A stretch of 64,000 bases of DNA from a virus. The notes beneath the pieces were generated by a model. That model did no database searches, was not told where the DNA came from, and worked only from the letters and a program-made list of their open reading frames with translations. Below, one piece after another: positions 42,689-61,408 of the stretch. Position numbers and translations under genes: made by a program. How positions within the stretch are numbered: the first letter of the stretch is position 1; the number at the start of each line of letters is the position of its first letter. The DNA lies in the IMG/VR virus record IMGVR_UViG_3300043331_000441, positions 1 to 64,000 of that record; one strand, written 5' to 3'.

Positions 42689-42985
42689 TTGGACTCAATG
42701 AGACTCGGTGCGGTGGCAGCAAGCGTTAAGCTCGGCCGCAGAGTCACCTTTCAGGCCTACGGCAATTCGATGAGGCCGCTTATCAAAAGTAACGAGATCG
42801 TGACTGTGCGTCCATTGCTCGTCCCACCGGAGCGGGGCGACGTCGTCCTCGCGCGCGTCAATGGGCACTGGTATCTCCACCTCGTCAGCGCGACGCGCCC
42901 AGGCCAGGTACAGATCTCCAACAACCATGGCCACGTGAATGGCTGGACATCGCTCAAGAATGTCGTTGGGATCCTCGAACGATGA
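42689..42985 (+). CDS. S24/S26 peptidase-like protein
   Basis: GNSMRPLI...GDVVL...YLH. Confidence 0.75.
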   Translation: MDSMRLGAVAASVKLGRRVTFQAYGNSMRPLIKSNEIVTVRPLLVPPERGDVVLARVNGHWYLHLVSATRPGQVQISNNHGHVNGWTSLKNVVGILER

Positions 42986-43465: not shown

Positions 43466-44305
43466 ATGAAGAAGTTCCTCGTACTGCTCGCGCTAGCAGC
43501 GTGCGCAGTCATCGGCGTCGTCGCCGGAGTCGCATCCGGTGGCGGCAACCCGCACGGCGACAAGGTGACGATCTGTCACGCCGCCGGTCGGGAGGGCACG
43601 ACGCACTACGAGACACTGACGATCGGCTACCAGGCCGTGTACGGGCCAGCGGGCCACTTCTACGAGAACGGCACGCCGCGCGCCGGGCACGAGCAGGATT
43701 ACCTCGGACCGTGCAAGGGAGACACGACAGACACAACGCCGACAGACACAACCCCGACCGATACCACGCCAACGGATACGACCCCGACAACGCCCACTGA
43801 AACGACGCCCACGACACCGACTACCCCGACCACGCCGTCAAGTCCGACCGGCGCGGCCACGGTGATCTGTGACAACGGCGTCTACAAGGTGAGTGGCACT
43901 GTCGATGGACAGGCAGCAGACAGCGTGCAGCCCGCGACGATCCCCGGCTCGACGAAGGGTACGGTCGAAGTGATCGTCACGCGCGGTGACACGTCAGTAC
44001 GGACAAGCGTGACAGTCAATGGCGACTGTGGGGCGCCCCCAACGACGGCGACAACGCCGACGACAGCGGCAACCACGACCGCGACGACGCCCACGACAAC
44101 CACGACGCCGCCTACGGCAACGACGCCCGCCAAGCCGTCCACGCCGAAGACGGTCAAGCCACCGAAGCAGAAGACGACCTCGGTGAAGAAGGCGGTCAAG
44201 AAGCAGCCGAAGCTGACCGGTAACCCGAAGGTCGATAAGTGCAAGGACCTCGGGAACGGGACGATGCGCTGCAAGGGCGTCGTTGTCACCCAGGGCAGCG
44301 GTTGA
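43466..44305 (+). CDS. secreted Thr/Pro-rich protein
   Basis: Signal peptide; KVTICHA.G domain; (DTTPT)n and T/P linkers; basic tail. Confidence 0.8.
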   Translation: MKKFLVLLALAACAVIGVVAGVASGGGNPHGDKVTICHAAGREGTTHYETLTIGYQAVYGPAGHFYENGTPRAGHEQDYLGPCKGDTTDTTPTDTTPTDTTPTDTTPTTPTETTPTTPTTPTTPSSPTGAATVICDNGVYKVSGTVDGQAADSVQPATIPGSTKGTVEVIVTRGDTSVRTSVTVNGDCGAPPTTATTPTTAATTTATTPTTTTTPPTATTPAKPSTPKTVKPPKQKTTSVKKAVKKQPKLTGNPKVDKCKDLGNGTMRCKGVVVTQGSG

Positions 44306-44496
44306 TGGTCGTACATGGAAAGGGGGCGGCGCAAGCCGCCCCCAACCAACGCCAACGCCTCGCCGTGTGGTGGTGGGGCCTGAGCGACGTTGAGCGCAAC
44401 CGCTACCGCAAACGATTCATGAGTGCGGTCAAGAAGAACCGACGCTTCCGCACTTCGGTGTATCGCCTACTCGCCAGAGAGGAGAACAAGCCGTGA
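44305..44496 (+). CDS. small basic protein
   Basis: TGATG coupling. Confidence 0.5.
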   Translation: MVVHGKGAAQAAPNQRQRLAVWWWGLSDVERNRYRKRFMSAVKKNRRFRTSVYRLLAREENKP

Positions 44497-45248
44497 CGAA
44501 CACGAAATCATCAGATGAGATTGACCGCATTGCGCGATCATTCCACGAGGCCTACGAACGCCTCGCGCCCGAACACGGTTACGCAACGCGCCGCGAGTCA
44601 GCCGTGCCGTGGGATCAGGTACCGGAGAACAACAAGAAGCTGATGCGCGCTGTCGTAGCCGAGATAATTCCCGCCGAAGTGGTGGCTCTCCGCGCCGAAC
44701 TCGCAGAAGCCCACGAGACGCGAGAACTGGCGATCCAGAACGGGGCGCACAACGTGGACGTGCTGCATCAGCAACTCGTTCGCGAGCGTGCTGCGCGGGA
44801 AGCAGCCGAACGGGAACGAGACGAGTACCGCGAGGCCGCACAGAACTGGGAGCAGTCTGCACTCGTGGCCGCTGAGAAGCGGTGGGCTGCCGAACGGGAA
44901 CGAGAAGCGTGGCGCGACTGGATCGACAAGCCCCACAAGGACGACCGCTGGCGGGCCATCTTGCCCCTGCTCCCGCCCGAGTACCAAGGGATCGACAACC
45001 CCGTCGAGCGCCTGATCGAGCGTGCGGAGGCTGCCGAGGCCAGGGAGAAGCATCTAGGGACGCTGTTGCAGCGTGTGGCTGACTCCAAATGTCTCTGCGG
45101 CGGGGAATGGCACTGGACTGGCGTACAAACCCGCTGCACCGGATGCGACCGGGTAAAGGGTTACGGCACCGCTCCGAGGGATGCCGAGGTCATCCGTGCT
45201 GCTCTTGGTTCCGCCGCTGCCGCCGACACCACGGAGGACACGGCATGA
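44493..45248 (+). CDS. modular mosaic coiled-coil protein 1
   Basis: VVALRAELAEA / ERAAREAAERERD / ERAEAAEA / ALGSAAAAD modules. Confidence 0.75.
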   Translation: MTNTKSSDEIDRIARSFHEAYERLAPEHGYATRRESAVPWDQVPENNKKLMRAVVAEIIPAEVVALRAELAEAHETRELAIQNGAHNVDVLHQQLVRERAAREAAERERDEYREAAQNWEQSALVAAEKRWAAEREREAWRDWIDKPHKDDRWRAILPLLPPEYQGIDNPVERLIERAEAAEAREKHLGTLLQRVADSKCLCGGEWHWTGVQTRCTGCDRVKGYGTAPRDAEVIRAALGSAAAADTTEDTA

Positions 45249-46830
45249 GCAACCCCATCGACGTGCTGCGCGAGGAGCGCGACCGCGAGCGTGCCGCCAG
45301 GGAAGCAGCCGAGGAACGCGCCAGCGTTGCCGAACGGGAACGAGACGAGGGCGTCTCCTACTGGCGAGGCAAGGCTGCCTACTTCGAGCGGCGTGAGAAG
45401 CTGGTCCGCGAGGCTGCCGAGGCCGAGGTGGTGGCTCTCCGCGCCGAACTCGCAGAGGCCAAGACAAACCAGTTCCCGGAGATAGACGAGTCCCTGTTGC
45501 CTGATTCGGTGAGTGGCGCTTCGTGGGACCCTGCGACGCTAACCGCGCTCGCGGAGGCGCATTGCCGCCATGCATGGGATCACAACATGGAAGTCAAGGC
45601 GTGGGTGGTGCTAACGCTGCTTGGCGAGCGTGCCGCCAGGGAAGCAGCCGAACGGGAACGAGAGGAGATGTTGCTCAACGAGGCTGAGGCGCGGCGGGCG
45701 GCAACTCTGGATCGCGAGCGTGCGGAAGCGGCCGAGGCCGACGCGAAACAACTACGGGAGGCGCTGGAACATATCCCCCGGTGCGGCAACTGCATGTCGG
45801 GCCGGACATGGGCCTGCGAGACGTACCAGGGCGCTCTCGGTTCCGCCGCTGCCGCCGACAAGCTCGACTCGTGCCCGCATTGCGGACTCAAAGGCAAGCC
45901 CTTCTGCTGGTGCGGCGAACACGCGCCCGTTCGTGAGGCTGCCGCCCGCGCCGAACTCGCAGAAGCCAACGCGCGAGCTGACAAGTGGCTCGCACGCTAC
46001 GAGGCAGAGCGAGATGACCGCGCGCGCGAGCGTGCCGCCAGGGAAGCAGCCGAACGGGAACGCCGCGATCTGGAGCAGCGCATGGACGACGAGATCGTCG
46101 CGCACGGCAAGACGGAGGAGCGTGCGGAAGCAGCCGAACGGGAACGGGACGAGTTGCTGGACGAGCGGTGGCGGTACGTGCAGGCGGTGGAGGCTGCCGA
46201 GGCGGACAACCAGCGGCTCCGGGACGCGCTGGTGCGCAAAGAGTCGGATGACCGCGAGTTCTGCAAGGGCGGCACGGAGACGTGTGAGCGCTGCGTCGGC
46301 TCATGCGGCATCGAGGAATCGTGGGACGACATCAAGCCGACGGCGATCGTCCAGGCGGTCGGCGGCGTGATCGAGGACGCCTATAGCCGGGTGAACCGCC
46401 CCGGCCCTGGCTCGTTCTCCGTCGATGGCGCGAAGTACGTGCTCGCAGTTGAGGCCAGAGCGGAGGCTGCCGAACGGGAACGAGACGCACTACGCGGCGA
46501 ACTAGAGCAGGCGTATGACTGCTGTGCGAGACCTTCCGGTACCTGCTTTGACCCGTCTGTTCTCACAAAGGTTGGGAGCGCGGATCCGAGTGCCGCCGAC
46601 GTGGACGGGGCCGACAAGCCCGATGTGGCCTCTGGCGGTCATCACGAGTCGGTGGGAGAGCGCCAGGGTAGGCAACCCGCGCTCCCGACACAACTGCTTG
46701 TAGACGCTGCCGGATTCGTCTGGCGCGACTTCGGCGAGGGCTACCTCTCCGGTTGCCCGTTCAATCCTGACAACGAGCCGCTGCCTGAGCCGATCACAGC
46801 CTACGTGAGAGCGGAGGCTGCCGAGGCCAG
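44679..46830 (+). repeat. dispersed in-frame DNA modules (24-35 bp)
   Basis: e.g. GAGCGTGCCGCCAGGGAAGCAGCCGAACGGGAACG identical at 45626 and 46028, variants at 44784 and 45287. Confidence 0.9.
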
Positions 46831-47002
46831 GGAGCAACAGCTACGGGTCGACCGGCACGAAGCATGGGAGGCGCTCGAAGACATCCTCATGTGCGAGGGC
46901 GACTCGTTCACCGAGGTTGCAGAGCGGGCACGCCGAGGACTTGCCCGCAAGTGGGCCGCTCTCGCTTCCGGCCAGCCCGCCGACAGCCAGGAGGGGGCAT
47001 GA
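45245..47002 (+). CDS. modular mosaic coiled-coil protein 2 (585 aa)
   Basis: ATGA coupling at 45245; same modules repeated with unique inserts, several CxxC. Confidence 0.75.
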   Translation: MSNPIDVLREERDRERAAREAAEERASVAERERDEGVSYWRGKAAYFERREKLVREAAEAEVVALRAELAEAKTNQFPEIDESLLPDSVSGASWDPATLTALAEAHCRHAWDHNMEVKAWVVLTLLGERAAREAAEREREEMLLNEAEARRAATLDRERAEAAEADAKQLREALEHIPRCGNCMSGRTWACETYQGALGSAAAADKLDSCPHCGLKGKPFCWCGEHAPVREAAARAELAEANARADKWLARYEAERDDRARERAAREAAERERRDLEQRMDDEIVAHGKTEERAEAAERERDELLDERWRYVQAVEAAEADNQRLRDALVRKESDDREFCKGGTETCERCVGSCGIEESWDDIKPTAIVQAVGGVIEDAYSRVNRPGPGSFSVDGAKYVLAVEARAEAAERERDALRGELEQAYDCCARPSGTCFDPSVLTKVGSADPSAADVDGADKPDVASGGHHESVGERQGRQPALPTQLLVDAAGFVWRDFGEGYLSGCPFNPDNEPLPEPITAYVRAEAAEAREQQLRVDRHEAWEALEDILMCEGDSFTEVAERARRGLARKWAALASGQPADSQEGA

Positions 47003-47202
47003 CGACGATCCGCGTGCGGGAACCAAGCAACGATGGGCGCCTAACCATCGAGTGGTACGCGGTCATGGGCGACGGCGCGTGGATGCTGCTCGACGGCGGA
47101 AACATCGTATCCATCCATGACTGGAAGTGGCAGGCACGACTCGCCCGACGACTGCTGCTCAGACAGCGCCAGCCCACCGACATCCAGGAGAACCCGGCAT
47201 GA
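46999..47202 (+). CDS. hypothetical protein
   Basis: GGAGG, ATGA coupling. Confidence 0.6.
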   Translation: MTTIRVREPSNDGRLTIEWYAVMGDGAWMLLDGGNIVSIHDWKWQARLARRLLLRQRQPTDIQENPA

Positions 47203-47465
47203 CCTCGCCGCGGAATCGTTCCGCTGTTTGTACGCCGAGCGATGATCCGGTGTACGAGCGCTGCGGCACTTGTCTGGTCAGTTCACCGCTTGACGGTCAG
47301 TTGTACTGCGAGCGGCCAGCGGGTCACCGTGGCCCGCATCGTCTGAGCAAGGAAGACGAACGACGCTCCTCCCAGTTCTGGGCGAGGTGGATGCGCCGTG
47401 CGCTCGCCCGCGCGGAGGCCCGTGATGATGATCCCATCGGCACGGTCGAGGAGCGCCATGCCTGA
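47199..47465 (+). CDS. Cys/His small protein
   Basis: ATGA coupling; C.R..GH.GPH. Confidence 0.6.
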   Translation: MTSPRNRSAVCTPSDDPVYERCGTCLVSSPLDGQLYCERPAGHRGPHRLSKEDERRSSQFWARWMRRALARAEARDDDPIGTVEERHA

Positions 47466-47658
47466 CCGTTCTGCTGCCGAAACACTCGGCACCGAGCAGC
47501 GCTGCTCGCACGTCGCGCTAGGTGACATAGAGAGCCGCTGCGAGCGCGAACACGGACACGGCGGGGCGCATCACTGCGCGGTCGATTCGGACCCGCATTG
47601 GAGGTACGTCATCTCGTGGTGGCCCAAGGACGCCCGCGCGGAGGCCCGTGATGCCTAG
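47458..47658 (+). CDS. Cys/His small protein
   Basis: C....H.H.G.H; alternative start 47425. Confidence 0.5.
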   Translation: MPDRSAAETLGTEQRCSHVALGDIESRCEREHGHGGAHHCAVDSDPHWRYVISWWPKDARAEARDA

Positions 47659-47890
47659 CGCGTGCCCGAAGTGCGGCACCCCCGGCGCTGAATCCTTAAC
47701 GCATGTCTGCGTCGTGCCTGACCGTCCTGCTGCCGGTGCGCCCGCCTGCCCCGATTGCGGGCTTAGTGGCCGCTTCCGCCCTTCTCGGCTCCGTCCTCCG
47801 CTCTGGCATTGCGACGGGTGTGCCCGTGACTTCCCGCCCCCTTCCGCTGCCGGTGCGCCAACCACCGAGCCGACGAGCGAGGCGCGATGA
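47651..47890 (+). CDS. Zn-ribbon protein
   Basis: CPKC, CPDC, CDGC. Confidence 0.6.
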   Translation: MPSACPKCGTPGAESLTHVCVVPDRPAAGAPACPDCGLSGRFRPSRLRPPLWHCDGCARDFPPPSAAGAPTTEPTSEAR

Positions 47891-48054
47891 CGATCGAAGT
47901 GGTCGGCAGGCGCTCGGCGCTCCAGTACGCGGTGGACGCCAATGGCAACTGGTGGTGGAAGCACGATTTCAGCAAGCGGTGGCGTCCTGCCGTTTGCGTC
48001 AGGTCGATCCCGCACGAGATCCTCGCTCTCGCCGCTGCCGGGGTGTCGTCGTGA
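47887..48054 (+). CDS. 55-aa hypothetical protein
   Basis: ATGA/GTGA coupling at both ends. Confidence 0.5.
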   Translation: MTIEVVGRRSALQYAVDANGNWWWKHDFSKRWRPAVCVRSIPHEILALAAAGVSS

Positions 48055-48419
48055 CCGGACGTCGGCTAAGAATCATCGTCTGCGGAAGTCGCAACTGGCA
48101 CGACCAACAACGAATCGCCGACCGCCTCGGCCACGTACCGGCCGACGCCACCATCGTCCACGGAGGCGCCCGCGGTGCCGACAGCATTGCTGGTGAAGAA
48201 GCGGCCAGACTCGGTCTTTTGGTCGAACCGCATTATGCCAACTGGGAGCGGTATGGACGCGCCGCGGGGCCGATTCGCAATCGCGAGATGGCCGACGCCG
48301 GTGCCGATCTTTGCATCGCCTTCCTTCAAGAAACACCTGACGCTCCGTCTCGCGGCACTCGTAATATGATCGACCAGGCGCGCGAACGAGGTATTCCAGT
48401 GGAGGTCATCGAGGCTTGA
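48051..48419 (+). CDS. SLOG-superfamily (DUF2493/YspA-related) protein
   Basis: IIVCGSR...VHGGARGAD...W..YGRAAGPIRN..M. Confidence 0.85.
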   Translation: MTGRRLRIIVCGSRNWHDQQRIADRLGHVPADATIVHGGARGADSIAGEEAARLGLLVEPHYANWERYGRAAGPIRNREMADAGADLCIAFLQETPDAPSRGTRNMIDQARERGIPVEVIEA

Positions 48420-49678
48420 GGCAATGCCCGAAGTGCGGCGATCCTATGGTCCAGTGGGGTCACGGCAGGATGGAACGCTGGCGTTGCCCGGCATGCCACC
48501 GGAAGCGGCGCAAGCAGTATCACGGCAAAGTCGAAATCATCGAGCAACCGGGATCACATCCGATGCCTGACGCGTCGGTGTTTGTGGACGATCACGATTT
48601 CAAGCTCTATATGGGCAACTGCCTCGACGTATTAGGCACGTTGCCCAGCGAGTCCGTCGATTGCGTGGTTACCAGTCCGCCGTATTGGGGGCTTCGTGAT
48701 TACCGAGCCGAAGGCCAGCTCGGCATGGAATCCACGCCAGAAGAGTTCGTCCAAAACATGACGTCTGTCTTTAGCGAAGCCCGGCGCATCCTTACTCCAC
48801 ACGGCACTTGCTGGGTTAATCTCGGTGATTCGTATACAAGTGGTGGCCGCACCTGGCGAGCACCGGATGCCAAGGACGCCTCAGGCGCACCACGAACAAT
48901 TGGTTCCCGCCCCGAAACTCCGCCAGGACTAAAGCCAAAAGATTTAGTTGGTATCCCCTGGCGCGTTGCTTTCGCGCTGCAGAACGATGGTTGGTGGCTT
49001 CGTAGCGACATTATTTGGTCGAAGGCCAACCCTATGCCAGAATCTGTTCTCGATCGTCCAACACGCTCCCACGAGTACATCTTCCTTCTTACGAAGCAAG
49101 CCCACTACTGGTGGGATATTGAGGCTGTGCGTGAACCGCACAATCCGGATAACCGCAGAATCACAACAGTGCAGGCCGGAGAAGGATCAATCCAACACCG
49201 TGACGGCGAACGCTGGCCAAACAGCGGTCGCAACATACGCTCGGTCTGGTCAATTCCCGCGCAACCGTATCCAGGCGCACACTTCGCAACCTTCCCGGAA
49301 GAACTCGCGCGACGCGCGATTGTCGCCGGATGCCCGCTCAAGGTTTGTCGTGAGTGTGGGAAACCATCCGAACGAATCGTTGAGCGCGACCGTGAAGATG
49401 TAGAGGGGTGGGCGCCCGTGCGCAAGCTAGAACACTCACAAGGCGCGGCCGAACAAGGCAACGGGCGCTTCGGCAATCCGCTTGTCACAACACTCGGCTG
49501 GACCGACTGTGGGCATAACAACTGGAGAAGCGGCATAGTCCTTGATCCGTTCATGGGCAGCGGCACGGTTGCCAAGGTTGCGCGCGACCATCAGCGCCAT
49601 GCTGTCGGCATCGAGTTGAACCCAGAGTATTGCCGCATGATCGCAGAGCGCCTGCAGCAGCTTTCTCTACTTGCCTAA
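48416..49678 (+). CDS. site-specific DNA methyltransferase (N4C/N6A, beta class) with N-terminal Zn ribbon
   Basis: VTSPPYWGLRDY, IIWSKANPMPES, HFATFP, VLDPFMGSGT. Confidence 0.9.
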   Translation: MRQCPKCGDPMVQWGHGRMERWRCPACHRKRRKQYHGKVEIIEQPGSHPMPDASVFVDDHDFKLYMGNCLDVLGTLPSESVDCVVTSPPYWGLRDYRAEGQLGMESTPEEFVQNMTSVFSEARRILTPHGTCWVNLGDSYTSGGRTWRAPDAKDASGAPRTIGSRPETPPGLKPKDLVGIPWRVAFALQNDGWWLRSDIIWSKANPMPESVLDRPTRSHEYIFLLTKQAHYWWDIEAVREPHNPDNRRITTVQAGEGSIQHRDGERWPNSGRNIRSVWSIPAQPYPGAHFATFPEELARRAIVAGCPLKVCRECGKPSERIVERDREDVEGWAPVRKLEHSQGAAEQGNGRFGNPLVTTLGWTDCGHNNWRSGIVLDPFMGSGTVAKVARDHQRHAVGIELNPEYCRMIAERLQQLSLLA

Positions 49679-49712
49679 CAACATGGCCCAATGCGGCCTA
49701 GAAAGGAGAACG

Positions 49713-50075
49713 GTGAGCAATGTTGATGTAAACGAAGATTTTGTGGTTTCAGTCCATGCACTCGAACGCTTCGAAGAACGGTTCCCAGAGGAATGGTCTA
49801 ACGATGCAGGCGTTGGCCAGTTGATCCACCGCGAGACGATGGATGCCCTGGAGGCTGGTCGTGTGTCGAGCATTCCGCCGCTTGAGTTTGCTGACAACGA
49901 CATCTCCCGTTGGAACGCACGCAAGTCCAAGATCGTCTGGGTACCCGACAAGACCCGCGGCTACGTGATCGTGGACGGCTACGAGGGGATGACCGTCGCG
50001 ACGGTGCTCACTGGGCAGCCAGCAGAACAGGCGCGTAATAAACTGTACGGTGCGACAAAAAGACCACGACGATAG
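49713..50075 (+). CDS. hypothetical protein
   Basis: Start motif; SVHALERFEERF. Confidence 0.7.
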   Translation: MSNVDVNEDFVVSVHALERFEERFPEEWSNDAGVGQLIHRETMDALEAGRVSSIPPLEFADNDISRWNARKSKIVWVPDKTRGYVIVDGYEGMTVATVLTGQPAEQARNKLYGATKRPRR

Positions 50076-50104
50076 AAAGCCAACCGGTTCAAGCCCGGTA
50101 AAGG

Positions 50105-50281
50105 ATGGTGGCCAAACATGACAGAGCCAAGCGCGAGAAGGAGATAAGGAACCAGGCGTACGCAAATCGCTACCGCCAGCGTGAGTGCAAGAAGTGCAAG
50201 CACCGCAGTTCCCGCCCAGGACGTTGTGTGATCTGTGGCGGCGATATGAAGCAAGGAAAGGAGAACAGTGGATCTTCCTAG
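50105..50281 (+). CDS. 58-aa Zn-finger peptide
   Basis: CKKC...CVICGG. Confidence 0.5.
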   Translation: MVAKHDRAKREKEIRNQAYANRYRQRECKKCKHRSSRPGRCVICGGDMKQGKENSGSS

Positions 50282-50477
50282 GACGACGGCGCTCCGTCCA
50301 CGCCCCGTGTGGATGCGCCACCTCAAGCGATCGTTGATGAACCTGGAGGATCCCGGGCCTCCAACAGAGGCAGAAAAACAGGACGCGATCAAGGTCCTGC
50401 GTGATCCAGACAACGCCGGGGTGCCCGGCCTTTGGATCGAAGCTCATCGCATTTTCGATGAAGCAGGAAGGGAGTAG
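50268..50477 (+). CDS. hypothetical protein
   Basis: Start motif. Confidence 0.6.
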   Translation: MDLPRTTALRPRPVWMRHLKRSLMNLEDPGPPTEAEKQDAIKVLRDPDNAGVPGLWIEAHRIFDEAGRE

Positions 50478-50479
50478 GA

Positions 50480-51148
50480 GTGGCAAAGAAGAAGAAGCAG
50501 CTCAAGACAGTCCTGACGTTTGTGCAGGACGAGACTGGCTCGATGATGGGGATCGCCGACCGGACGATCTCGGCCTTCAACGAATACTTCGACACGCTGA
50601 AGAAAGAGAAGGACATCGGCGACGTCGAGACGATCATCTGGCAGTTCTCCGATACGCAGACGGAGGCGCGCGTGCGCAAGCTCCACGAGGGCCCGCTCGC
50701 CGATGTACCGACACTCGACGCCCAGAGCTACCGGCCACGCGGTGTCACCCCGCTACTCGATGCCGTTGGAACAGCAATTCAGCAGGCCGAGGGCAAGAAG
50801 GCCGACCGTCATCTGTTCATCGTGCAGACAGACGGACTGGAGAACGCGAGCGTGGACTTCACGCGCGAAGAGATCGCAAAGCTCGTCGCGAAGAAAGAGA
50901 AGGCCGAGAACTGGACGCTCGTCTTCCTCGGCGCAGGTATCGCGAACTGGGTCAGCGAAGCACGCGCGATGGGGGCCACTGGCCAGTCCGTCACAAGCTA
51001 CGACCCTGGCGATCAGACAGTCGCTTACGCCAGTCTGAGTTCCACCGCCGGTGCGTTCCTGCGCACAAACAGCGTCAAGGCACACAGCCTTGGCTCAGAC
51101 ACCGAGAAGGAGATCAAGAGACGGAAGAAGACCACGCCGAAGTCGTAA
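50480..51148 (+). CDS. vWA domain protein
   Basis: VQDETGSM...TPLLDAVG...TDGLENAS...FLGA. Confidence 0.85.
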   Translation: MAKKKKQLKTVLTFVQDETGSMMGIADRTISAFNEYFDTLKKEKDIGDVETIIWQFSDTQTEARVRKLHEGPLADVPTLDAQSYRPRGVTPLLDAVGTAIQQAEGKKADRHLFIVQTDGLENASVDFTREEIAKLVAKKEKAENWTLVFLGAGIANWVSEARAMGATGQSVTSYDPGDQTVAYASLSSTAGAFLRTNSVKAHSLGSDTEKEIKRRKKTTPKS

Positions 51149-51176
51149 TTCACACACCGGAGAAAGGAGAACAGCA

Positions 51177-51557
51177 ATGAGGCAGGTCACAGTTCAGAAG
51201 GACGATCTGATGGAGATCGTCAAGGCAAACCGCGACGAGCACCGCACGATCTTCGAGAAGGCCGTCGAGGGTTACCGCAAACGAGCGATCGAGATCCTCG
51301 AAGAGCACATCGAACGAATCAAGCACGGCAAGGTCGAGCGTGTCGTGGTGCAGTTGCCGGTGCCGCAGGATCACACGGCCGACTACGACCGCGTGCTGAA
51401 GATGCTCGACATGAGCGTTGACGACGAGGTCACGCTCGACGAGCAGGCGTTCGCCGAGTACGTGATGGACGACTGGCACTGGCAGCGGCAGTTCCTGACC
51501 GACTCATCTTCGTTCACGGCGCTTGCCGCTGCAAAGCTCGACCGACTCAACAAGTAA
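51177..51557 (+). CDS. conserved phage hypothetical protein
   Basis: N...H...F..A..GY...P.DHT.DYDR...ML.MS. Confidence 0.75.
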   Translation: MRQVTVQKDDLMEIVKANRDEHRTIFEKAVEGYRKRAIEILEEHIERIKHGKVERVVVQLPVPQDHTADYDRVLKMLDMSVDDEVTLDEQAFAEYVMDDWHWQRQFLTDSSSFTALAAAKLDRLNK

Positions 51558-51567
51558 AGGAGAACAG

Positions 51568-51732
51568 ATGCACGGCAAATCGTTCGCGGCGGGTGTCGCG
51601 GCTGGCGTACTTGGGCTGCTGTTGCTCAAGTCGCTCACCCACCTTTTCCTGCCGCTCCTAGTGATCGTGGGGATCATCGTCGTCGCGTACGTCATATTCG
51701 GCGGAGGTCGCAATGAGCGTCCACCCGCTTGA
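51568..51732 (+). CDS. small two-TM protein
   Basis: Start motif; hydrophobic. Confidence 0.65.
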   Translation: MHGKSFAAGVAAGVLGLLLLKSLTHLFLPLLVIVGIIVVAYVIFGGGRNERPPA

Positions 51733-51910
51733 CGACGAAGAGGTTGTCTGCACCGTCACGCTCCTGCATACCCCGACCGGGGCAATTGCACAGCGGGCAG
51801 AGACGGCACCAGCAGACGGCCCTCCCGATGTAGATGGGGCTGTCGAGAAAGCAAAGAGGGGCGCCCTCGACAGCCTGCTCAGTCAACTCGAACAGATAGG
51901 TGGTGCATGA
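51713..51910 (+). CDS. hypothetical protein
   Basis: GGAGGT RBS. Confidence 0.55.
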   Translation: MSVHPLDDEEVVCTVTLLHTPTGAIAQRAETAPADGPPDVDGAVEKAKRGALDSLLSQLEQIGGA

Positions 51911-52983
51911 TGAGAAAGGCCCTGATCATCCTTGTGTTCTTGGCGCTGTTCGCCTTCCTGGCGACCGGTTGCAACGAGAACACGTCTGCCAAGTCCGACG
52001 AGACCGTTTGTGTGTTCGACGGCTCCGAACATGGCTCGCAAAAGTTGAAGTACCAGATCTTCCCTGGCCAGGAGCCGCGGAAGTCGGACAGCAACGACGA
52101 GGTTGTTCGCATTCCTACCTCGTTCCGTTTCTATGCCGCGTTCCGTGATCGCTCGCGCGCAGATGCGGGTGCACCAGAGTTCTATCTCGGCTACGCGAAG
52201 GACAACGTCCCTGTGCAAGTCGAGGGTCAGGACAAGTTCCGCTTCAACACCGACAACGCCTGTGAGTGGTATGCCCGCCACGGGCGGCGTAACGCCAACG
52301 ACGGAAACCTTGGCTTCAACGCTCGTTCGAACGAGTCAGCATCGGACTTCTCGCCGTGGGTGCGCTGGCTGAACGAGAACTTCGGCAGCGTGATGGCCGC
52401 AACGATCAAGGCCGAATCGAAGAACTTCACGTGGCCGGAGTTGGTGTACGGCGACGACCCGGAGGGGCCGCAGCGTTCCCAGGGCGTCGACATCGCCTAC
52501 GGCAAGTGGATCGGCTACAAGTTCACGCAGAGGCTGCAAGAGTCGATCGGTGGCTCGTTCTTCTGTGGCACCAACCCGGAAATCTGGGAGGGCTACGAGA
52601 TCGACAAGAACTGCCCGCCGATCTTCTTCGAGACCGGGCCAATCAAGACGCAAGACGACACCCTGATGACTCAGCACGCAGCCACGATTGCATTGCAGGC
52701 GAAGGCCAACAACGATGCGTTGGCGGCCAAGATCCGTGCCGATGCGCTGCGCAAGCAGCTTGCCGAAGAAGCGGTGGCGGCGAAGATCAGAGCACAGCGC
52801 GTTGGTTCTCAGCGGCGTGACGAGAAGACGAAGCAGCGCGTACTGCAGGAACAGGTGAAGACGGCGCGGTTGCAGACGCTTTCCGATCCGGACGTGCAGA
52901 AGTGCCTTGTCTACGCGAAGAGTGGGCTGGACTGCGACGGCAAGTGGCCGACCAAGGTGATTCTCGGACAGTCCGGGAGGTAA
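51907..52983 (+). CDS. lipoprotein with C-terminal coiled coil (SPFH/band-7-like architecture)
   Basis: LATGC lipobox; Ala/Glu/Lys-rich tail. Confidence 0.6.
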   Translation: MMRKALIILVFLALFAFLATGCNENTSAKSDETVCVFDGSEHGSQKLKYQIFPGQEPRKSDSNDEVVRIPTSFRFYAAFRDRSRADAGAPEFYLGYAKDNVPVQVEGQDKFRFNTDNACEWYARHGRRNANDGNLGFNARSNESASDFSPWVRWLNENFGSVMAATIKAESKNFTWPELVYGDDPEGPQRSQGVDIAYGKWIGYKFTQRLQESIGGSFFCGTNPEIWEGYEIDKNCPPIFFETGPIKTQDDTLMTQHAATIALQAKANNDALAAKIRADALRKQLAEEAVAAKIRAQRVGSQRRDEKTKQRVLQEQVKTARLQTLSDPDVQKCLVYAKSGLDCDGKWPTKVILGQSGR

Positions 52984-52987
52984 GGCG

Positions 52988-53773
52988 ATGGGACGCACCG
53001 AAACAAAGCTCACCGCCGGGTGGGTGGTCTGCGGTGCGATCTGGCTGGCATGGGCCGTGTTTGCGTTTGGTGCCAACCAAGCGAAGGACTCGAACTACCG
53101 CGACAAGCTCGACGCCGCAAAGACACAACAGGTGTTCTGGCGCGTCGTGGCAGGAAGAGAACAGGGCAACGAGAGCGGGGTGCTGAACAAGCTCGCGAAC
53201 GATTTACGAGCGACGCCCGCGTCGGAATTGGTCGACTTTCGTGGCGACTCCAACCGGTACGGCGGCATCACAGAGGCTCTCGGCTACGACCCGTTCAATG
53301 GCCCTAACTGCCAGGAATGCGGGCCGCTCGACGACGCAGTCGTAGCGGACGCAATCGAAATCAAGAAGGGTGGGTTGCAGGCGGTGGTGGCACGCCTGCA
53401 ACCTCCCAAGCCAGATCACGTCAGTGGACCACCGCTTGTCCTATGGCTCGTGTGGCTTGTATCGCTGCCGCTTGCGGTCTTCGGTTACAAGCGCTACGCA
53501 CAACACCGCCATGAAGTGAAGTACGGCGAGTACACACAGGAACTCGAACTCGCCGATTCGTTGTCAAGCGCAATGAAGGGCCTGCCCTCACCGCAGGCCG
53601 ACGAGCTGGGCGTCCTTCGCAGCAAGCTGCTGGAAGGAATCGATCAGCGCGTCAAGTACGGAGAAGATGAGGCGAAGCAGATGCGTCTGGCGGCGCTGAA
53701 GGAAGAAGCGCTCGCCACGCTCGAAGCCATTGATGAGGGCAACCGTGTCCTCGCGAAAGGAGAACACCAATGA
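52988..53773 (+). CDS. two-TM membrane protein
   Basis: Hydrophobic helices near N-terminus and middle. Confidence 0.7.
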   Translation: MGRTETKLTAGWVVCGAIWLAWAVFAFGANQAKDSNYRDKLDAAKTQQVFWRVVAGREQGNESGVLNKLANDLRATPASELVDFRGDSNRYGGITEALGYDPFNGPNCQECGPLDDAVVADAIEIKKGGLQAVVARLQPPKPDHVSGPPLVLWLVWLVSLPLAVFGYKRYAQHRHEVKYGEYTQELELADSLSSAMKGLPSPQADELGVLRSKLLEGIDQRVKYGEDEAKQMRLAALKEEALATLEAIDEGNRVLAKGEHQ

Positions 53774-54498
53774 AGCGTCTCAAGTTCATCCTCGCCTCCA
53801 TCTGGAGCGCGTTCCTTGGCAAGAAGGAAGGGCAGTACCACCGGGAGATCCTCGACCTCACCTATGAACAGATGACAGACGGTCTGGTCGAGGTGAAGCG
53901 TGACCTCGCAAACGTCGCGACTGCGAAGCATCGCATCCTGCAGTTGGTCGAGAAGGCACGTACCGAAACGCTCACGTTGGAGAGCAACGCCGTCGGCTTC
54001 CTCAACGCTGGTGACGAGCAGAGCGCACGCGAGAGCCTGGAGCGGAAGGCTGCCGTGTCTCAGCAGCTAGTGCAGCTGGAAAGCCAGGCGGCAGGCATCT
54101 CGATTCGACAGAAGGCGCTGGAAGACAACCAGCGTGAGCTGGAAACGCGCATCTCGGCGTTCAAGGCGGAGAAGGAAGTCATCAAGGCCCGCTACTCGGC
54201 AGCGCAAGCCACGGCGCGGATCGGTGAGACCGTCACCGGGATCAGCAAGGACGCGCGTGAGGCAACGAAGGCCGTGGGTCGGATTACCGAGCAGACGGAG
54301 GAGCTGGAGGCACGTGGCGACGCGCTCTCCGAGCTGATCCAGGGCGGCAGCCTGGAAGACGTGTTCAACCCTGGGCAGTCACCGCTCGACAGGCGGGCGC
54401 TCGAAATGGCGCGCAACGAAGCGGTCGAGAACGATCTCGCGCGGCTGCGTAAGCAGATCGGCCAGGGCACCCCTGCGCCCACGGGTGGTGGCAGCTGA
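53770..54498 (+). CDS. pspA: PspA/IM30 (ESCRT-III-like) family protein
   Basis: Long coiled coil; A...GDE..ARE.L.RK; K.V.KARY.AA.A. Confidence 0.8.
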   Translation: MKRLKFILASIWSAFLGKKEGQYHREILDLTYEQMTDGLVEVKRDLANVATAKHRILQLVEKARTETLTLESNAVGFLNAGDEQSARESLERKAAVSQQLVQLESQAAGISIRQKALEDNQRELETRISAFKAEKEVIKARYSAAQATARIGETVTGISKDAREATKAVGRITEQTEELEARGDALSELIQGGSLEDVFNPGQSPLDRRALEMARNEAVENDLARLRKQIGQGTPAPTGGGS

Positions 54499-54716
54499 TG
54501 ACGCTCGCGGAGCTGCTCAAGGAACTCCCGAGCTACAACGAGGTTGCGGGGCACATGCTGCCGAGTGGTGAGCTATGCCTAATGCTGAACCACCGTGTCA
54601 CTCTCGATAACGCTGTCCTCGTCCGCGTACGTGCGGACGAGGACGTGCTCGCCTTCTACACAGAAGACGAAGCAGCGATCGAGGTGATCAACACAGGAGG
54701 CGACTGGCCATCATGA
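54498..54716 (+). CDS. hypothetical protein
   Basis: TGATG coupling. Confidence 0.6.
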   Translation: MTLAELLKELPSYNEVAGHMLPSGELCLMLNHRVTLDNAVLVRVRADEDVLAFYTEDEAAIEVINTGGDWPS

Positions 54717-54825
54717 AAAGATGGAAGGAGAGATACGACCGTTACATGTTCGCGCTAGGCGAACGATGGTCGATTGCGCTCACCGACTGGCTGCGCAAGA
54801 AGTTCAACCTGCCAAGGAGAGATGC

Positions 54826-54981
54826 ATGAGTGACGTCGAAAAAACCGTCGAAGAGACGCCGGATCAGTCGATCATCGTGGTCCGCGAACGGCAGTACATG
54901 TGGGCGATCTACTTCGCCTTCATCGTCCTTGTCGCAGCGATCACGTTTGGTGTCATGGAACTCCTGTTCGGAGGACGCTGA
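54826..54981 (+). CDS. small single-TM protein
   Basis: AAGGAG RBS; hydrophobic C-terminus. Confidence 0.55.
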   Translation: MSDVEKTVEETPDQSIIVVRERQYMWAIYFAFIVLVAAITFGVMELLFGGR

Positions 54982-55223
54982 TGGTCGGCATCGTTGATCG
55001 CGTACTCCGGCGTCTAGGGCTAAGACCGCCCTACGAGACACGTGATCGAGAGGCGACGTACCGCATCAAGGGTGGCCGTGTTCTTACCGACGCCGACATC
55101 CAGGCACTAGCCGATGAGGCGGAGAGGGGATACGACGTCGACGCACTCCGCAATATCACTGCGATGCCCGATGATGGCTCGGACGATCCTGAGGCACGGA
55201 AACGTATGTTGGAAAACACGTAG
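54981..55223 (+). CDS. hypothetical protein
   Basis: TGATG coupling; GRVLTDADIQALADEAERGYD. Confidence 0.6.
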   Translation: MVGIVDRVLRRLGLRPPYETRDREATYRIKGGRVLTDADIQALADEAERGYDVDALRNITAMPDDGSDDPEARKRMLENT

Positions 55224-55236
55224 AAAGGAGAACATC

Positions 55237-55506
55237 GTGAAGCGACAGCTTCCGGAAGGCGCGAAGGTCAAGTTCCAGCACGAGCGATTGTTCACGCAAG
55301 ACAGGCCGCTGAGCGCACAGCCGCGCGGCGGGAAGACCACCGCAATCGTCACGTTCGCTGATGGTGGACAGGTTCTGGGGGAAGCAATGTGCTCCTCCAA
55401 GGACAATTACTGCAAGCGCATCGGGCGCGACATTGCGCTTGGTCGCGCTTTGGCGAGCCTCGAAGCAACCGCAGACGCACAAAGCCCAGAAAGGAGAACG
55501 GCATGA
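55237..55506 (+). CDS. conserved phage hypothetical protein
   Basis: RGG.T...CS.KDNYC...GR.IALGRA. Confidence 0.75.
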   Translation: MKRQLPEGAKVKFQHERLFTQDRPLSAQPRGGKTTAIVTFADGGQVLGEAMCSSKDNYCKRIGRDIALGRALASLEATADAQSPERRTA

Positions 55507-55895
55507 TCAAGCCCAACAGCGCCGCCGAGGCAGTCGCACAGGGAGCCCAGTTGCTCGACGAGAAAGAACCTGGCTGGTGGCGCGAAATCGACCTCGGCAC
55601 ACTCGAACTCTCAAGCTGCAAGCGTTGCATCTGCGGGCAGCTTGGCGAAAGAAAGCGGAAATCGTACGAGAGCTATGTGCACGGAACCCTCGACGTGCCC
55701 ATGTACTTCGATGACGCCTGCTACGAGCACGGCCCGTCGTATTACGGTTTCGACTGTCTCTATGAGACCGTCGAAACCGTCGAACCGCTCGCGACATGGG
55801 ATGAACTGGACGCCGAGTGGGAGAAGGTCATCCTTGCCCGACGCGAGGCCGACAAGCTTGTCCCCGCTGAGGAGAGAGAGATGGTGACTACGTGA
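55503..55895 (+). CDS. actinophage-type hypothetical protein
   Basis: GAQLLDE..PGW...ID...C.CGQL. Confidence 0.7.
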   Translation: MIKPNSAAEAVAQGAQLLDEKEPGWWREIDLGTLELSSCKRCICGQLGERKRKSYESYVHGTLDVPMYFDDACYEHGPSYYGFDCLYETVETVEPLATWDELDAEWEKVILARREADKLVPAEEREMVTT

Positions 55896-56146
55896 GCCGA
55901 ACCTACATTGTCTTCGGCTCCGACGACAAGCGGAACTGGAAGGACCTCGGCCCGTTCACCGCCGGGGGCGCCCCCCAGGCGATCAAACAGGCAATCGAGA
56001 AGACGCAACACGGACATTACTTCGCGGTTGCCGAAGGAAATATCACGGCGGTCACACCAGAGGTTCAACAGCGCGCACCGATTGTGCGGCTACGGCCGAT
56101 GGCGCGCGGGCAGCTCACAGTGGAAGACGCCCTCAAGGAGTCGTAG
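55892..56146 (+). CDS. hypothetical protein
   Basis: GTGA coupling. Confidence 0.65.
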   Translation: MSRTYIVFGSDDKRNWKDLGPFTAGGAPQAIKQAIEKTQHGHYFAVAEGNITAVTPEVQQRAPIVRLRPMARGQLTVEDALKES

Positions 56147-56172
56147 GATCGGAGAAAACCTCCGGAGGGAAG

Positions 56173-56682
56173 ATGACCGAGATCGTCCCCGTCCCATCGC
56201 AAGGCATCCAGCTACTCGCCGAGTTAGAGAAGGCGGGGGCGATCACCAACACCGCACTCATCCTCCCACCAGACATACCGTACGAGCAGTGTGAATCACT
56301 CGCGACGATGCTCGGTCAGCTGCACCGCACGTCGCAGTGGCTGATCGGTGATTTGCTCAATCACATCGAACGGGTCTACGGTGAGACGTATGCACAGGCA
56401 GCGGAGGCAACAGGTCTCTCGAAAGGGGCGCTCATGAACTACACCTCTGTCTGCGCGCACATACCGCGCTCACGGCGGCGGCACAACGTGCCGTTCTCAA
56501 CCCACATGGAAGTTGCGTATCTCGAACCGACCGAGCAGGAACGCTGGTTGAGCCAGGCTGCCGCGAATCGGTGGACAAAGGAAGAACTGCGTGCTGCGAG
56601 AAAAGCAGAGGGCAATCACTCGCCAGCGGTAGTAGAATGCGTATGTGCAGCGTGTGGACATGTCCACACGCACACCGCATAA
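56173..56682 (+). CDS. LmbU-like DNA-binding protein
   Basis: SQWLIGD...Y.QAAEATGLS...L.NY...RRR..V.FS.H.EVA...WL..A. Confidence 0.75.
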   Translation: MTEIVPVPSQGIQLLAELEKAGAITNTALILPPDIPYEQCESLATMLGQLHRTSQWLIGDLLNHIERVYGETYAQAAEATGLSKGALMNYTSVCAHIPRSRRRHNVPFSTHMEVAYLEPTEQERWLSQAAANRWTKEELRAARKAEGNHSPAVVECVCAACGHVHTHTA

Positions 56683-56705
56683 AAGGAGAGCAACAGCAAT
56701 AATAT

Positions 56706-56810
56706 GCGCCCGTAGCTCATTGGTAGAGCACCGGTCTGATTGGCCGGAGGTAAGCGCGAAAGCATAGGTGGGTTCATCGCCACCGAAAGGTTCGATTCCT
56801 GCCGGGCGCT
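56706..56810 (+). tRNA. tRNA-Ile(GAU)-like gene with 32-nt T-stem insertion (56756-56787)
   Basis: Acceptor GCGCCCG/CGGGCGC; D GCTC/GAGC; CCGGT-CTGATTG-GCCGG; T stem GC|insert|AGG-TTCGATT-CCTGC. Confidence 0.65.
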
Positions 56811-56839
56811 TACGCAAGAGAGCAGCGCACTCTCTAGGG

Positions 56840-56922
56840 CTGGGAAACGGGAAGCCGAAGCGTGGCAGCGGGGGCGCCCCGCGCAGAAGCCAATCCGTGC
56901 GATGCGGAGCACCGTTTCCCAG
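56840..56922 (+). ncRNA. four-way-junction RNA candidate between the two Ile-like tRNAs
   Basis: 11-bp helix CTGGGAAACGG/CCGTTTCCCAG enclosing three hairpins. Confidence 0.5.
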
Positions 56923-56933
56923 TACCGACTTAT

Positions 56934-57086
56934 CGGGATGTAGCTCAGTGGTAGAGCACCGGTCTGATGTACCGGAGGACGCGTCTGAAAAGACATAGGC
57001 ATTCCAGAAGGGCGACGTATTCGCGCTTTTGAGAAGCCGGAGCGAAATACTCCGTAAGCCGAAAGGTTCGAATCCTGCCATCCCGA
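56934..57086 (+). tRNA. tRNA-Ile(GAU)-like gene with 81-nt T-stem insertion (56983-57063)
   Basis: Acceptor CGGGATG/CATCCCG + A73; CCGGT-CTGATGT-ACCGG; AGGAC; GC|insert|AGG-TTCGAAT-CCTGC. Confidence 0.7.
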
Positions 57087-57088
57087 CT

Positions 57089-57550
57089 ATGAAACGACCA
57101 ACACTCATATGGGCACAAGACCTCGGAGAACCCGAGTGCCCCTACGCACGACGCTGGGTTCTCAATCTTGGCTTCGCCAGTATTCGCGTCCACCACTGGG
57201 TCCGCAGCGACGACAAGCGCGCGCCGCATGATCATCCATGGTGGTTTCTGACACTGGTGCTGTCAGGCTCCTACGAGGATTGGGGCTATCCGGAACGCAC
57301 CGCCAAGGGCGCCCCGCGCCTGGATCACAAAACAGTCGATCCGCTCAAACGTGGCAGCGTGCGTTACCGGCCAGCCCATCACATTCACTCGGTGAGCGTC
57401 CCGCCGGGCGGATGCTGGACAGTCCTCCTCACGGGAAGGGAGCGCAAACAGTGGGGATTCTGGACGCGCCGGAAGGATGGCGCTGCGCGTTTTCTGCGTT
57501 CTGCGCGATACTTCTATAAGCACGGGCACCATCCGTGCGATCAGGAATGA
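57089..57550 (+). CDS. cupin-fold phage protein
   Basis: VHHW..SD..R.PHDHPW.F.TLVL.G.Y.D...HSV. Confidence 0.8.
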   Translation: MKRPTLIWAQDLGEPECPYARRWVLNLGFASIRVHHWVRSDDKRAPHDHPWWFLTLVLSGSYEDWGYPERTAKGAPRLDHKTVDPLKRGSVRYRPAHHIHSVSVPPGGCWTVLLTGRERKQWGFWTRRKDGAARFLRSARYFYKHGHHPCDQE

Positions 57551-57647
57551 AAGGAGAACAAGTGAGCGAGAGGCGAGCATTCCCTCACTCGCGCCAGCCG
57601 GTGTGCCCCACTGAATAAAGCCATGGAAGAATGCGACCACGACTGGG

Positions 57648-57878
57648 ATGACGACTTCATGGGCGGTTCAATCTGCCGAAAGTGTCGTACGCATGTCTAA
57701 AAACGTCTTCTGGGAGGGCGTGTCTGCCAAGGATGACCCGCGTCGGTTCAGACGTCCAGTACGGGTGGATGGAAAGAATTGCCGTGACCGTCAACCCTGG
57801 GGAGGATTCACCGACCAGGAGCGATGTGAATGCGTCGGAGAATGCGAGTACGATCGCCGACAGAATGAGGCTTCGTGA
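57648..57878 (+). CDS. hypothetical protein
   Basis: Cys-containing ORF; start uncertain. Confidence 0.45.
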   Translation: MTTSWAVQSAESVVRMSKNVFWEGVSAKDDPRRFRRPVRVDGKNCRDRQPWGGFTDQERCECVGECEYDRRQNEAS

Positions 57879-58167
57879 CCCAGGACTCCTCGCGCTTCTT
57901 TCGCATACGTATGACGAATGCGCATTGTGTGGCACCACACAAAATCTGCACCTGCACCACGTGCTCTACCGCTCGCAAGGAGGTGATGATGTCCGTGGGA
58001 ATATCGTTTGCCTCTGCCGCTCGTGCCATGAAGCAGTTCACCGAGGCGATAAAGCTGCTCTCCACGCACACATCCGCCTCTTCCGGCCAGACGTCGTGGA
58101 ATATCTGCAAGGACGACTAGGTGTAGATGCAGCGAATGCACGTTTAGCGTCCGATGCCTGTGGATAA
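57865..58167 (+). CDS. HNH endonuclease
   Basis: CALC...HLHH...SQGG.D...N...LC..CH...H. Confidence 0.85.
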   Translation: MRLRDPGLLALLSHTYDECALCGTTQNLHLHHVLYRSQGGDDVRGNIVCLCRSCHEAVHRGDKAALHAHIRLFRPDVVEYLQGRLGVDAANARLASDACG

Positions 58168-58188
58168 CATATCCCCAGGTGATTGTGG

Positions 58189-58509: not shown

Positions 58510-58539
58510 TACGTCCGATCGCAAAATTACTGTTTCCCC

Positions 58540-58935: not shown

Positions 58936-59246
58936 CACGTGGATTAGTAGACTGTCATGACGCATGGGCGGAGCATGGTGCGCAGCGAGAGGCTGTGACG
59001 AGGGTCGGCACACCCTGGTTGAAACACTCCGCCCTTGCACTAAGTAGTCTGTTCAGATCTGCGGCCCCAACCCGTCGAGCACGAAGGGCATCTTCACAGG
59101 CGGGAGGGCCGCAGAAAATCAGTGGGCCTCAGGTCTGTAGTAGCGAGTTGATCGCCGTGAACTGGCCTCGTGCAGCCTTTGTGAGCCGTAGTTGACGACA
59201 CGCTGCGGTGAGCAGGGGAAAGACCCGGCTAAGCGGGCGCCCACAA

Positions 59247-60828: not shown

Positions 60829-60950
60829 CCCGCCGCATCGGATGGTGGCTCATGGGATGGCCGACCGGCGTTCGACGAGTAAACCAGTGGCTAATCCGCT
60901 ACGGCCCGTACCGCCTCGGTGCGTGGCTAGTCAACCGGAGGTCAGCGTGA
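60816..60950 (+). CDS. small Trp/Arg-rich peptide
   Basis: Coupled to the next gene. Confidence 0.45.
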   Translation: MDRVTRRIGWWLMGWPTGVRRVNQWLIRYGPYRLGAWLVNRRSA

Positions 60951-61408
60951 CCCGCCCGGACCCCGCCGACATCGACCACGCCCTCGCTGCGCGGAAGAAA
61001 GGGCTTGGCCTCACCAGGGCCGAGGCCTGGAGGCTTGCTGACGAGGTGGTGGCCCTCCGCGCCGAACTCGCAGAAGCCATCGAGCAGCGCAACGAATGGG
61101 CCGAGCGCGTCGAGGTCGTGCGTGCCGCCAGGGAAGCAGCCGAACGGGAACGAGACGGCTACAAGCAGACGGCCAACAGCAACCACTGGCGTGCGGAGGC
61201 TGCCGAAACCGAGCTGCGCGAGCTGCGTCTCGTAGTCGCTCGGCAGTTGACGCCACTCGATGTTGCCGTGACACACATCGACATCCTGCGCCGAAAAAGC
61301 GATGACTACACCCCACGGGAACGGGACAACGTCGCGATCATCGTCGAGTCGCACGCCGAGGAAGCACGGAAGGCGTTGTTCGATGCGCTTCGTGCGGAAG
61401 AGACGTGA
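60947..61408 (+). CDS. modular mosaic coiled-coil protein 3
   Basis: Same DNA modules as 44493-47002. Confidence 0.75.
   Translation: MTRPDPADIDHALAARKKGLGLTRAEAWRLADEVVALRAELAEAIEQRNEWAERVEVVRAAREAAERERDGYKQTANSNHWRAEAAETELRELRLVVARQLTPLDVAVTHIDILRRKSDDYTPRERDNVAIIVESHAEEARKALFDALRAEET

Follow-up and report, generated by a model that had tools for sequence, protein, structure and literature searches.

Mosaic organization of g1, g2 and g3

The DNA analysed here, the first 64 kb (the window) of the 130,556-bp virus record IMGVR_UViG_3300043331_000441 in IMG/VR, carries three genes, g1, g2 and g3, in which a few constant modules (A, B, C, D and a tail) alternate with segments that are mutually unrelated, several of which hold Cys clusters. 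In our assessment, these genes probably represent a rare phage family of helical rods and cassettes that is shuffled by recombination at linker modules. The family is new and very rare, its sub-genic linkers are frozen at synonymous sites and its cassettes are mobile in both position and number.

A preliminary description of the locus had placed modules A-D in two open reading frames (ORFs), and the modules were recovered at the same coordinates and in frame with both. All module copies lie in the coding frame, and the repeats are all direct, with none inverted. Module A is identical over 29 nt at 44679 and 45428, with a partial copy at 45947, and the copy in g3 (61046) carries a single mismatch, which is synonymous. 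Module B is identical over 35-37 nt between 45626 and 46028, and its g3 copy (61118) has one mismatch and shares 36 identical nt with that of g2; the copy at 44784 in g1 has three mismatches and that at 45287 comprises the first 24 nt only. The 14-nt core of module B, GCCGAACGGGAACG, is present in eight exact copies (at 44805, 44889, 45329, 45647, 46049, 46133, 46469 and 61139), always encodes AERER and is absent elsewhere in the 130 kb genome. The tail codons also supply the next gene with its Shine-Dalgarno sequence and ATGA overlap, so that the tail both ends a protein and marks a conserved boundary between genes. Tails of the g1/g2 type also end the metagenome proteins P0066, P0070, P0071, P0076, P0078, P0080 and P0084.

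The contribution of protein constraint to this identity was assessed with a null test in which the g1-g3 proteins were held fixed and their codons were redrawn from genome usage in 300 simulations. The real sequence contains 50, 23 and 11 exact repeats of at least 14, 20 and 24 nt, respectively, compared with simulated means of 2.0, 0.1 and 0.01, and the observed counts exceed those of all 300 simulations. In the AERER core, the codons of same-residue pairs are identical in 148 of 172 cases, compared with 61 expected from genome codon usage, and among same-residue codon pairs identical codons are two to three times as frequent as genome usage predicts. The conservation at synonymous positions noted previously thus withstands both the codon-pair and the codon-resampling tests. 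Since the repeats lie far above both expectations, the module copies either descend from a recent common DNA sequence or are under selection as DNA; their flanks are unrelated.

Cassette combinations among the relatives

Protein searches covered 5.8 billion clustered proteins for g1 and g2 and 1.84 billion representatives for the family profile. The profile matched 31 of these representatives at E <= 1e-3 and 15 at E <= 1e-10. The family relatives are all from metagenome contigs, and none is named or has a Pfam domain. Their alignment shows one layout, namely an N-terminus VTRPDPADID followed by A, var1, B, var2, C, var3, D and the tail. Here var1 is a variable helical segment and var3 can hold a small domain; module D is sometimes followed by a CPHC...CWC finger and the tail is short.

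No match to g1 or g2 was found among 50,697 isolated phages (DNA and tblastn searches), no relative was found in GTDB genomes and the family is absent from five distant phages with the same methylase as this phage. In IMG/VR, the g2 peptides, the 21-mer of module B and the family profile were all without a match. The 20-mer of module A retrieved from the same database three unrelated small proteins that merely contain LRAELA, and the sole match to g1 was L004, an 86-aa stand-alone N-domain. Among JGI metagenome contigs, 0 matched the pattern of module A, and the 600 pattern matches obtained for the family profile included no relative.

A protein-level segment map of 23 metagenome relatives against g1-g3 revealed blocks of 90-100% identity that are bounded by modules and joined in different combinations. 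In P0003, residues 1-96 of g1 (99% identity over residues 1-99) are followed by 17 new residues that occur nowhere in this genome and then by g2 residues 522-585 (100% identity); the left change coincides with the start of B and the right change with the start of C. The g1 segment following module A (var1) is joined to three different N-termini (that of g1 and P0003, that of P0004 and that of P0053) and, in the same four proteins, is continued downstream by at least two different segments. Pieces of g2 are found as separate small proteins (P0074 and P0081; P0066; P0070; P0075; P0072 and P0078; P0073; P0067-P0069). Cassettes also change their place: the NGAHNVD segment occupies the A-B interval in g1 and the B-C interval in P0070, and the RyR-like domain described below is N-terminal in g1 and lies between C and D in P0060. 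Because many cassettes of the relatives are absent from this genome, the cassette pool is larger than any one genome. The genes had been proposed to be mosaics of constant modules and swappable inserts, and the segment map bears this out. The order of the inserts in relatives had been set beforehand as a test; at the protein level it is not fixed, and it changes at module edges.

Gene structure and the downstream chain

The features of the locus are listed in Table 1. In g1 the order is RyR-like N-domain, A, var1, B, var2, B', an insert, C, a Cys knuckle, D and the tail, so that the canonical family N-terminus is swapped for another domain. The most likely start codon of g2, an ATG at 45245, forms an ATGA overlap with the stop of g1. 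The g2 product looks like approximately three family units fused in frame (residues ~1-232, 233-392 and 393-585). P0066, P0070 and P0071 end shortly past the finger with ...VREAAADSQENPA, whereas in g2 the sequence ...VREAAA continues directly into a partial module A and the second unit. The third paralog, g3, was found by a whole-genome search; it is a canonical short family member with the N-terminus VTRPDPADID and modules A, B and C, and is identical to P0077.

Table 1. Features of the g1-g3 locus and of the genes downstream of g2; coordinates were worked out by hand from residue numbers.
Feature	Position	Strand	Description
g1	44493..45248	+	251 aa; GTG start after GAGAGGAG
g2	45245..47002	+	585 aa; ORF
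g3	60947..61408	+	153 aa; GTG start after GGAGG; 14 kb downstream
Module A, g1	44673..44711	+	AEVVALRAELAEA
Module A, other copies	45422-45460 (g2), 61043-61078 (g3), partial 45947-45967 (g2)	+	
Module B, g2	45626..45660	+	ERAAREAAERER
Module B, other copies	46028-46062 (identical, g2), 61118-61152 (g3), 44784-44818 (g1), 45287-45310	+	
Module C, g1	45018..45047	+	ERAEAAEA
Module C, other starts	45716, 46118, 46454, 46805 (g2), 61187 (g3)	+	
Module D and tail, g1	45198..45248	+	D is AALGSAAAAD; tail codons hold GGAGGA and the ATGA stop/start for g2
Module D, internal, g2	45830-45859	+	One mismatch between 45833 and 45201
Diverged D and tail, end of g2	46955-47002	+	AGGAGG and ATGA for g4
RyR-like mini-domain, g1 residues 2-68	44496..44696	+	Predicted fold
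Cys knuckle, g1	45090..45146	+	CxC...CxxC; beta-hairpin in model
CPHC...CWC..H finger cassette, g2	45872..45922	+	Recurs after D in P0066, P0070, P0071, P0053 and P0072
Further Cys clusters, g2	45782-45817, 46262-46306, 46520-46546	+	
Cassette, g2 residues 465-521	46637..46807	+	Separate small proteins P0067, P0068, P0069 and partly P0073
Last module C, C-terminal helices and tail, g2 residues 522-585	46808..46999	+	100% identical to the P0003 C-terminus
Small coupled ORFs g4-g7	46999..47890	+	67-88 aa; three with CxxC/His clusters
g4	46999-47202	+	Ends ...QENPA, then ATGA
g5	47199-47465	+	Chain member
g6	~47422-47658	+	Chain member
g7	47648-47890	+	Chain member
23-nt junction repeat	47405-47427, 47631-47653	+	Encodes ARAEARD; carries GGAGG and GTGATG

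The small ORFs g4-g7 that follow g2 are translationally coupled through ATGA or GTGATG overlaps. The ARAEARDA tail found at their junctions also ends the metagenome protein P0067, and g4-g7 therefore belong to the same network of boundary sequences. Pfam, PHROGs and NCBIfam gave no meaningful family for g1-g7, and in a Pfam scan of g1 and g2 no family was found at E <= 0.1. A profile search against PDB sequences returned nothing, and the ESM Atlas yielded unnamed clusters and weak leads only.

The copies of modules A and B in g1/g2 and in g3 form direct repeats of 29-36 nt with 0-1 mismatch that lie 14-16 kb apart in the same orientation (44679-61152). These distant repeats could mediate deletion of the intervening block, including the tRNA-Asp region.

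Origin of the mosaic arrangement

We consider that recombination at the modules is very likely to be the process that generated this arrangement, because stretches of 14-37 identical nt with unrelated flanks are reused within and between genes, and as far as 14 kb apart. Recombination or gene conversion at the modules is also the least complicated account, and the mosaic relatives are the expected products of crossovers at such linkers. In the mechanism that we propose, the products would be long Ala/Glu/Arg-rich alpha-helical rods broken by Cys knuckles, the RyR-like mini-domain and other short domains, while the linkers A, B, C and D and the tail would stay identical as DNA over 14-37 nt. 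Each linker would be long enough to act as a crossover site, so that the cassettes between linkers could be exchanged, deleted, duplicated or fused, and recombination or gene conversion at the linkers would take place between paralogs within one genome and with co-infecting relatives. The tail would have a second role at the nucleotide level, providing the Shine-Dalgarno sequence and ATGA for the next gene, and the g2 fusion would have arisen where the gene boundaries in tails were lost.

Several points weigh against this interpretation. The crossover points are located at protein resolution only. RecT, ERF and RecA were not detected in the phage genome, so that a host enzyme or an unrecognised phage enzyme would have to act on homologies of <=37 nt. 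Moreover, the record is a metagenome assembly, and many of the relatives lie on contigs of ~1 kb and are possibly truncated.

The modules might instead be conserved as nucleic-acid sites, either as iteron-like binding sites for a replication or partition protein within coding DNA (the lambda origin, for example, sits inside gene O) or as an RNA signal. The frozen synonymous sites are consistent with such a role, as is the restriction of the 14-nt core, within 130 kb, to eight copies in a single orientation, and the locus adjoins helicase-loader-like and ParB-like genes. The copies are, however, spaced widely and unevenly (84-440 nt), with one of them 14 kb off in a paralog, and all of them are read in one frame as a single peptide, which is kept at the protein level in the relatives. 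In addition, an Rfam scan gave no match, there are no notable inverted repeats and the reshuffling of the cassettes would be left unexplained. We therefore judge conservation as nucleic-acid sites to be quite unlikely.

There is a similarly slim chance that g2, or the whole arrangement, is a chimera of strain variants that were joined through the modules during assembly. The record is, after all, a metagenome-assembled virus contig, and most of the relatives are on contigs of 934-3776 nt, as expected from breaks at a heterogeneous, repeat-rich locus. On the other hand, g2 stays in frame across more than ten module junctions over 1.76 kb, and both of its ends are coupled to the adjoining genes through ATGA overlaps. 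Identical g1 and g2 proteins are also known from three contigs, and identical g3 proteins from two. With <=37 nt, the modules would also fall short of the final k-mer lengths that assemblers commonly use, and the mosaic family stands even if g2 is chimeric.

An ordinary paralog family, in which protein constraint on a helical motif and codon bias act without any special recombination, is hardly credible as an explanation. Low-complexity Ala/Glu/Arg helices are common in GC-rich phages, and unrelated phage proteins hold LRAELAEA encoded by the same 20 nt. Codon bias alone was nevertheless rejected by the fixed-protein resampling, in which 0.1 repeats of at least 20 nt arise against the 23 observed, and cassette blocks of 90-100% identity in new combinations go beyond point divergence. 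Finally, variable segments beside constant repeats could recall a diversity-generating retroelement or an invertase shufflon, but these were rejected as vanishingly improbable: their defining parts are absent (a retroelement is excluded because no match to a reverse transcriptase, RVT_1, was found in the genome, and the repeats are all direct), the variation is of whole cassettes and not by adenine-specific substitution, and the repeats are linkers between unrelated cassettes.

Predicted structures of the g1 and g2 products

AlphaFold (AF2) models of g1 and g2 were built as monomers with the family alignments. The g1 model (mean predicted local distance difference test score, pLDDT, of 80) contains one continuous helix, residues 45-145, that spans A, var1, B, var2 and B'. 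In g2 the predicted helices comprise residues 4-76, 96-176, 227-341, 393-428, 518-548 and 555-575, of which the three long helices of 73, 81 and 115 residues have pLDDT values above 90; between the helices lie Cys knuckles, modelled with low confidence, and a small region of beta-hairpin. The long helices consist of ~55% Ala, Glu and Arg, contain 17-25% large hydrophobic residues and are without a dominant 3.5-residue period. The preliminary description had called these proteins coiled coils. The long helices are indeed present in the models, but a coiled coil is unproven because of the low hydrophobic content and the lack of a clear 3.5-residue periodicity, and on the basis of the models a stable single helix and a weak Ala-based coiled coil are equally possible. 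The idea that the inserts are mini-domains likewise holds in part: knuckles and small domains are found only around C and D, and many of the var1 and var2 segments are stretches of helix.

The N-terminal domain of g1 (region 44505-44669, residues 5-59) carries the motif FHExYERLAP..GY.TR..S.VPW..VPE.N+.LM at residues 13-59. This motif of ~45 residues recurs in no fewer than 63 metagenome proteins, where it is fused to many different and unrelated partners, including nuclease, helix-turn-helix and LexA-type domains and a receiver domain, and it is also present in the stand-alone phage protein mentioned above (L004:51-311, 86 aa). With g1 residues 2-68 as the query, nearly all of the top 50 Foldseek matches are RyR domains (probability 0.9-1.0, E 0.1-0.5). 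The VIA comparison of the same residues gave Z values of 7.0-7.4 and root-mean-square deviations of 2.6-3.0 for 55-68 aligned residues, the targets being a Bacteroides RyR protein (93 residues, mostly covered) and human RyR3 Repeat12. Viral RyR-domain proteins are among the weak matches in BFVD. By direct reading, g1 has H18-x-x-Y21, and its H-x-x-aromatic and P-W...PE..K motifs are at what we take to be the corresponding positions of the Pfam RyR consensus.

Two observations tell against this fold assignment. PF02026 was without a match in g1, in the genome at E <= 10 and in any of the aligned proteins (0/57), and a Z of ~7 is middling for a small helical domain. Values of Z below 8 can come from common helical arrangements.

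The mini-domain may be part of a recently described group of phage proteins, which act by binding or destroying immune signals based on ADP-ribose. Phage RyR-domain proteins (RyDEP, PF02026) cleave or sponge 2'/3' cyclic ADP-ribose (cADPR) and thereby counter Thoeris, with His, Trp, His and Asp as ligand and catalytic residues (2026 preprint, PMC13232231). Like RyDEP, g1 residues 2-68 model as a putative RyR-type helical repeat, and the genome is actinophage-like. Unlike RyDEP, the g1 domain is short (~45-65 residues) with a shorter loop, has no PF02026 match and would be an exchangeable cassette on a helical rod. Because of the RyR-like predicted fold and the anti-Thoeris activity reported in the preprint, a counter-defence role for at least the RyR-like cassette is a reasonable lead, though not a result. 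More tentatively, and in our view doubtfully, the proteins in general may serve as oligomeric or rigid rods that display binding cassettes, and may target host functions, for instance defence signalling.

Comparison with known mosaic systems

By analogy, the closest mechanism is that of the adhesins gp38 and gp37 of T-even phages, in which conserved glycine-rich motifs (GRMs) separate hypervariable segments and recombination between the motifs swaps the segments (PMC3157838 and the 1998 work of Tetart cited there). In both systems, short motifs under strict conservation are interspersed with variable segments from a restricted repertoire, exchanges fall at these motifs (for g1-g3, as judged at the protein level) and the modular design would permit rapid reassortment. 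The family shows what characterizes the gp38 type, namely conserved motifs in a conserved order with variable segments that recur in different combinations. The two differ in that gp38 and gp37 are receptor-binding proteins of the virion with a Gly-rich structural core, whereas g1-g3 are non-structural genes in what looks like an early or DNA-metabolism arm of the genome. Furthermore, the constant parts of g1-g3 are helical Ala/Glu/Arg modules, the cassettes change in position and number and units fuse, unlike in gp38/gp37, and there is no sequence relationship between the two.

In gene type, the closest analogues are the Ea22/Ead proteins (PF13935), mosaic early proteins of lambdoid phages in which a coiled coil occupies the centre and the C-terminal domains are unrelated (PMC10834534, PMC7093339). 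Similarly to Ea22, g1-g3 appear to be early-region accessory genes with a helical centre whose terminal domains are swapped among related phages, and it is likely that the g1-g3 products are accessory early proteins. However, Ea22 has a constant N-terminal region and coiled coil with C-terminal variation, whereas the mosaicism of g1-g3 runs along the whole protein. Ea22 also lacks several internal DNA-identical linkers, whereas the g1-g3 locus repeats its linkers up to 8 times per genome. The likeness to Ea22/Ead that had been drawn at the outset therefore holds as an analogy but not as a family assignment. Membership was rejected because PF13935, run against all six frames of the complete genome, gave nothing at E <= 10 although it matched control genomes, and only a weak language-model resemblance (0.81) connects the two.

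In the modular theory of Susskind and Botstein, conserved 'linker' sequences reportedly lie at gene boundaries, with lambdoid boundary sequences as the example. Like these, the tail modules are situated at gene junctions (with a Shine-Dalgarno sequence and ATGA) and could mediate the exchange of whole genes. Unlike these, most of the linkers in g1-g3 are intragenic and are reused many times per genome.

Accounts of phage mosaicism usually place it between genes or within tail fibres, whereas here the units of exchange are sub-genic. The linkers are visible as stretches of 14-37 nt whose synonymous sites are frozen and which recur up to eight times per genome, and natural relatives display the reshuffled products, so that the long-standing 'linker' model can be put to a direct test at a single small locus. 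The analysis also flags a widespread, unannotated RyR-like mini-domain with many fusion partners. It is conceivable, although rather improbable, that the locus is a working diversification system in which frequent gene conversion among the three paralogs and with co-infecting relatives keeps renewing the cassette combinations. In that case, one phage population would hold many alleles of a counter-defence or host-interaction protein, and the locus would resemble bacterial antigenic-variation loci.

Genome setting

The record is estimated to be 92% complete and has a GC content of ~0.60. The phage is probably a distant actinophage, because the best matches of its AAA-ATPase (~40% identity) are from Gordonia and Mycobacterium phages. 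ParB-like, metallophosphoesterase, S24-like and helicase-loader-like genes and a gene for a Thr/Pro-rich secreted protein lie 5' of g1, and an SLOG/YspA protein and an N6/N4 DNA methylase are encoded farther 3' of g2; the g1/g2 region looks like an early or DNA-metabolism arm.

The gene for the Thr/Pro-rich protein (43466-44305, + strand) encodes 279 aa that include a hydrophobic, signal-like segment at the N-terminus and two long tracts of Thr/Pro-rich repeats, in which ACN-CCN repeats have a periodicity of 9-15 nt. No Pfam or PHROG family matches this protein, which resembles a mucin-like phage protein that is secreted or displayed on the cell surface. The S24-like gene (42689-42985, + strand) encodes 98 aa that correspond to the catalytic part only of an S24 (LexA/UmuD-type) peptidase (E 7e-7), without a DNA-binding domain. 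Downstream, the SLOG/YspA-family gene (47703-48419, + strand; PF10686, E 2e-14) overlaps the start of the methyltransferase gene (48416-49678, + strand; PF01555, E 2e-45), the product of which has a zinc-ribbon-like CxxC...CxxC N-terminus. ARAGORN predicted a tRNA-His(GTG) at 4480-4550 and a tRNA-Asp(GTC) at 59409-59483.

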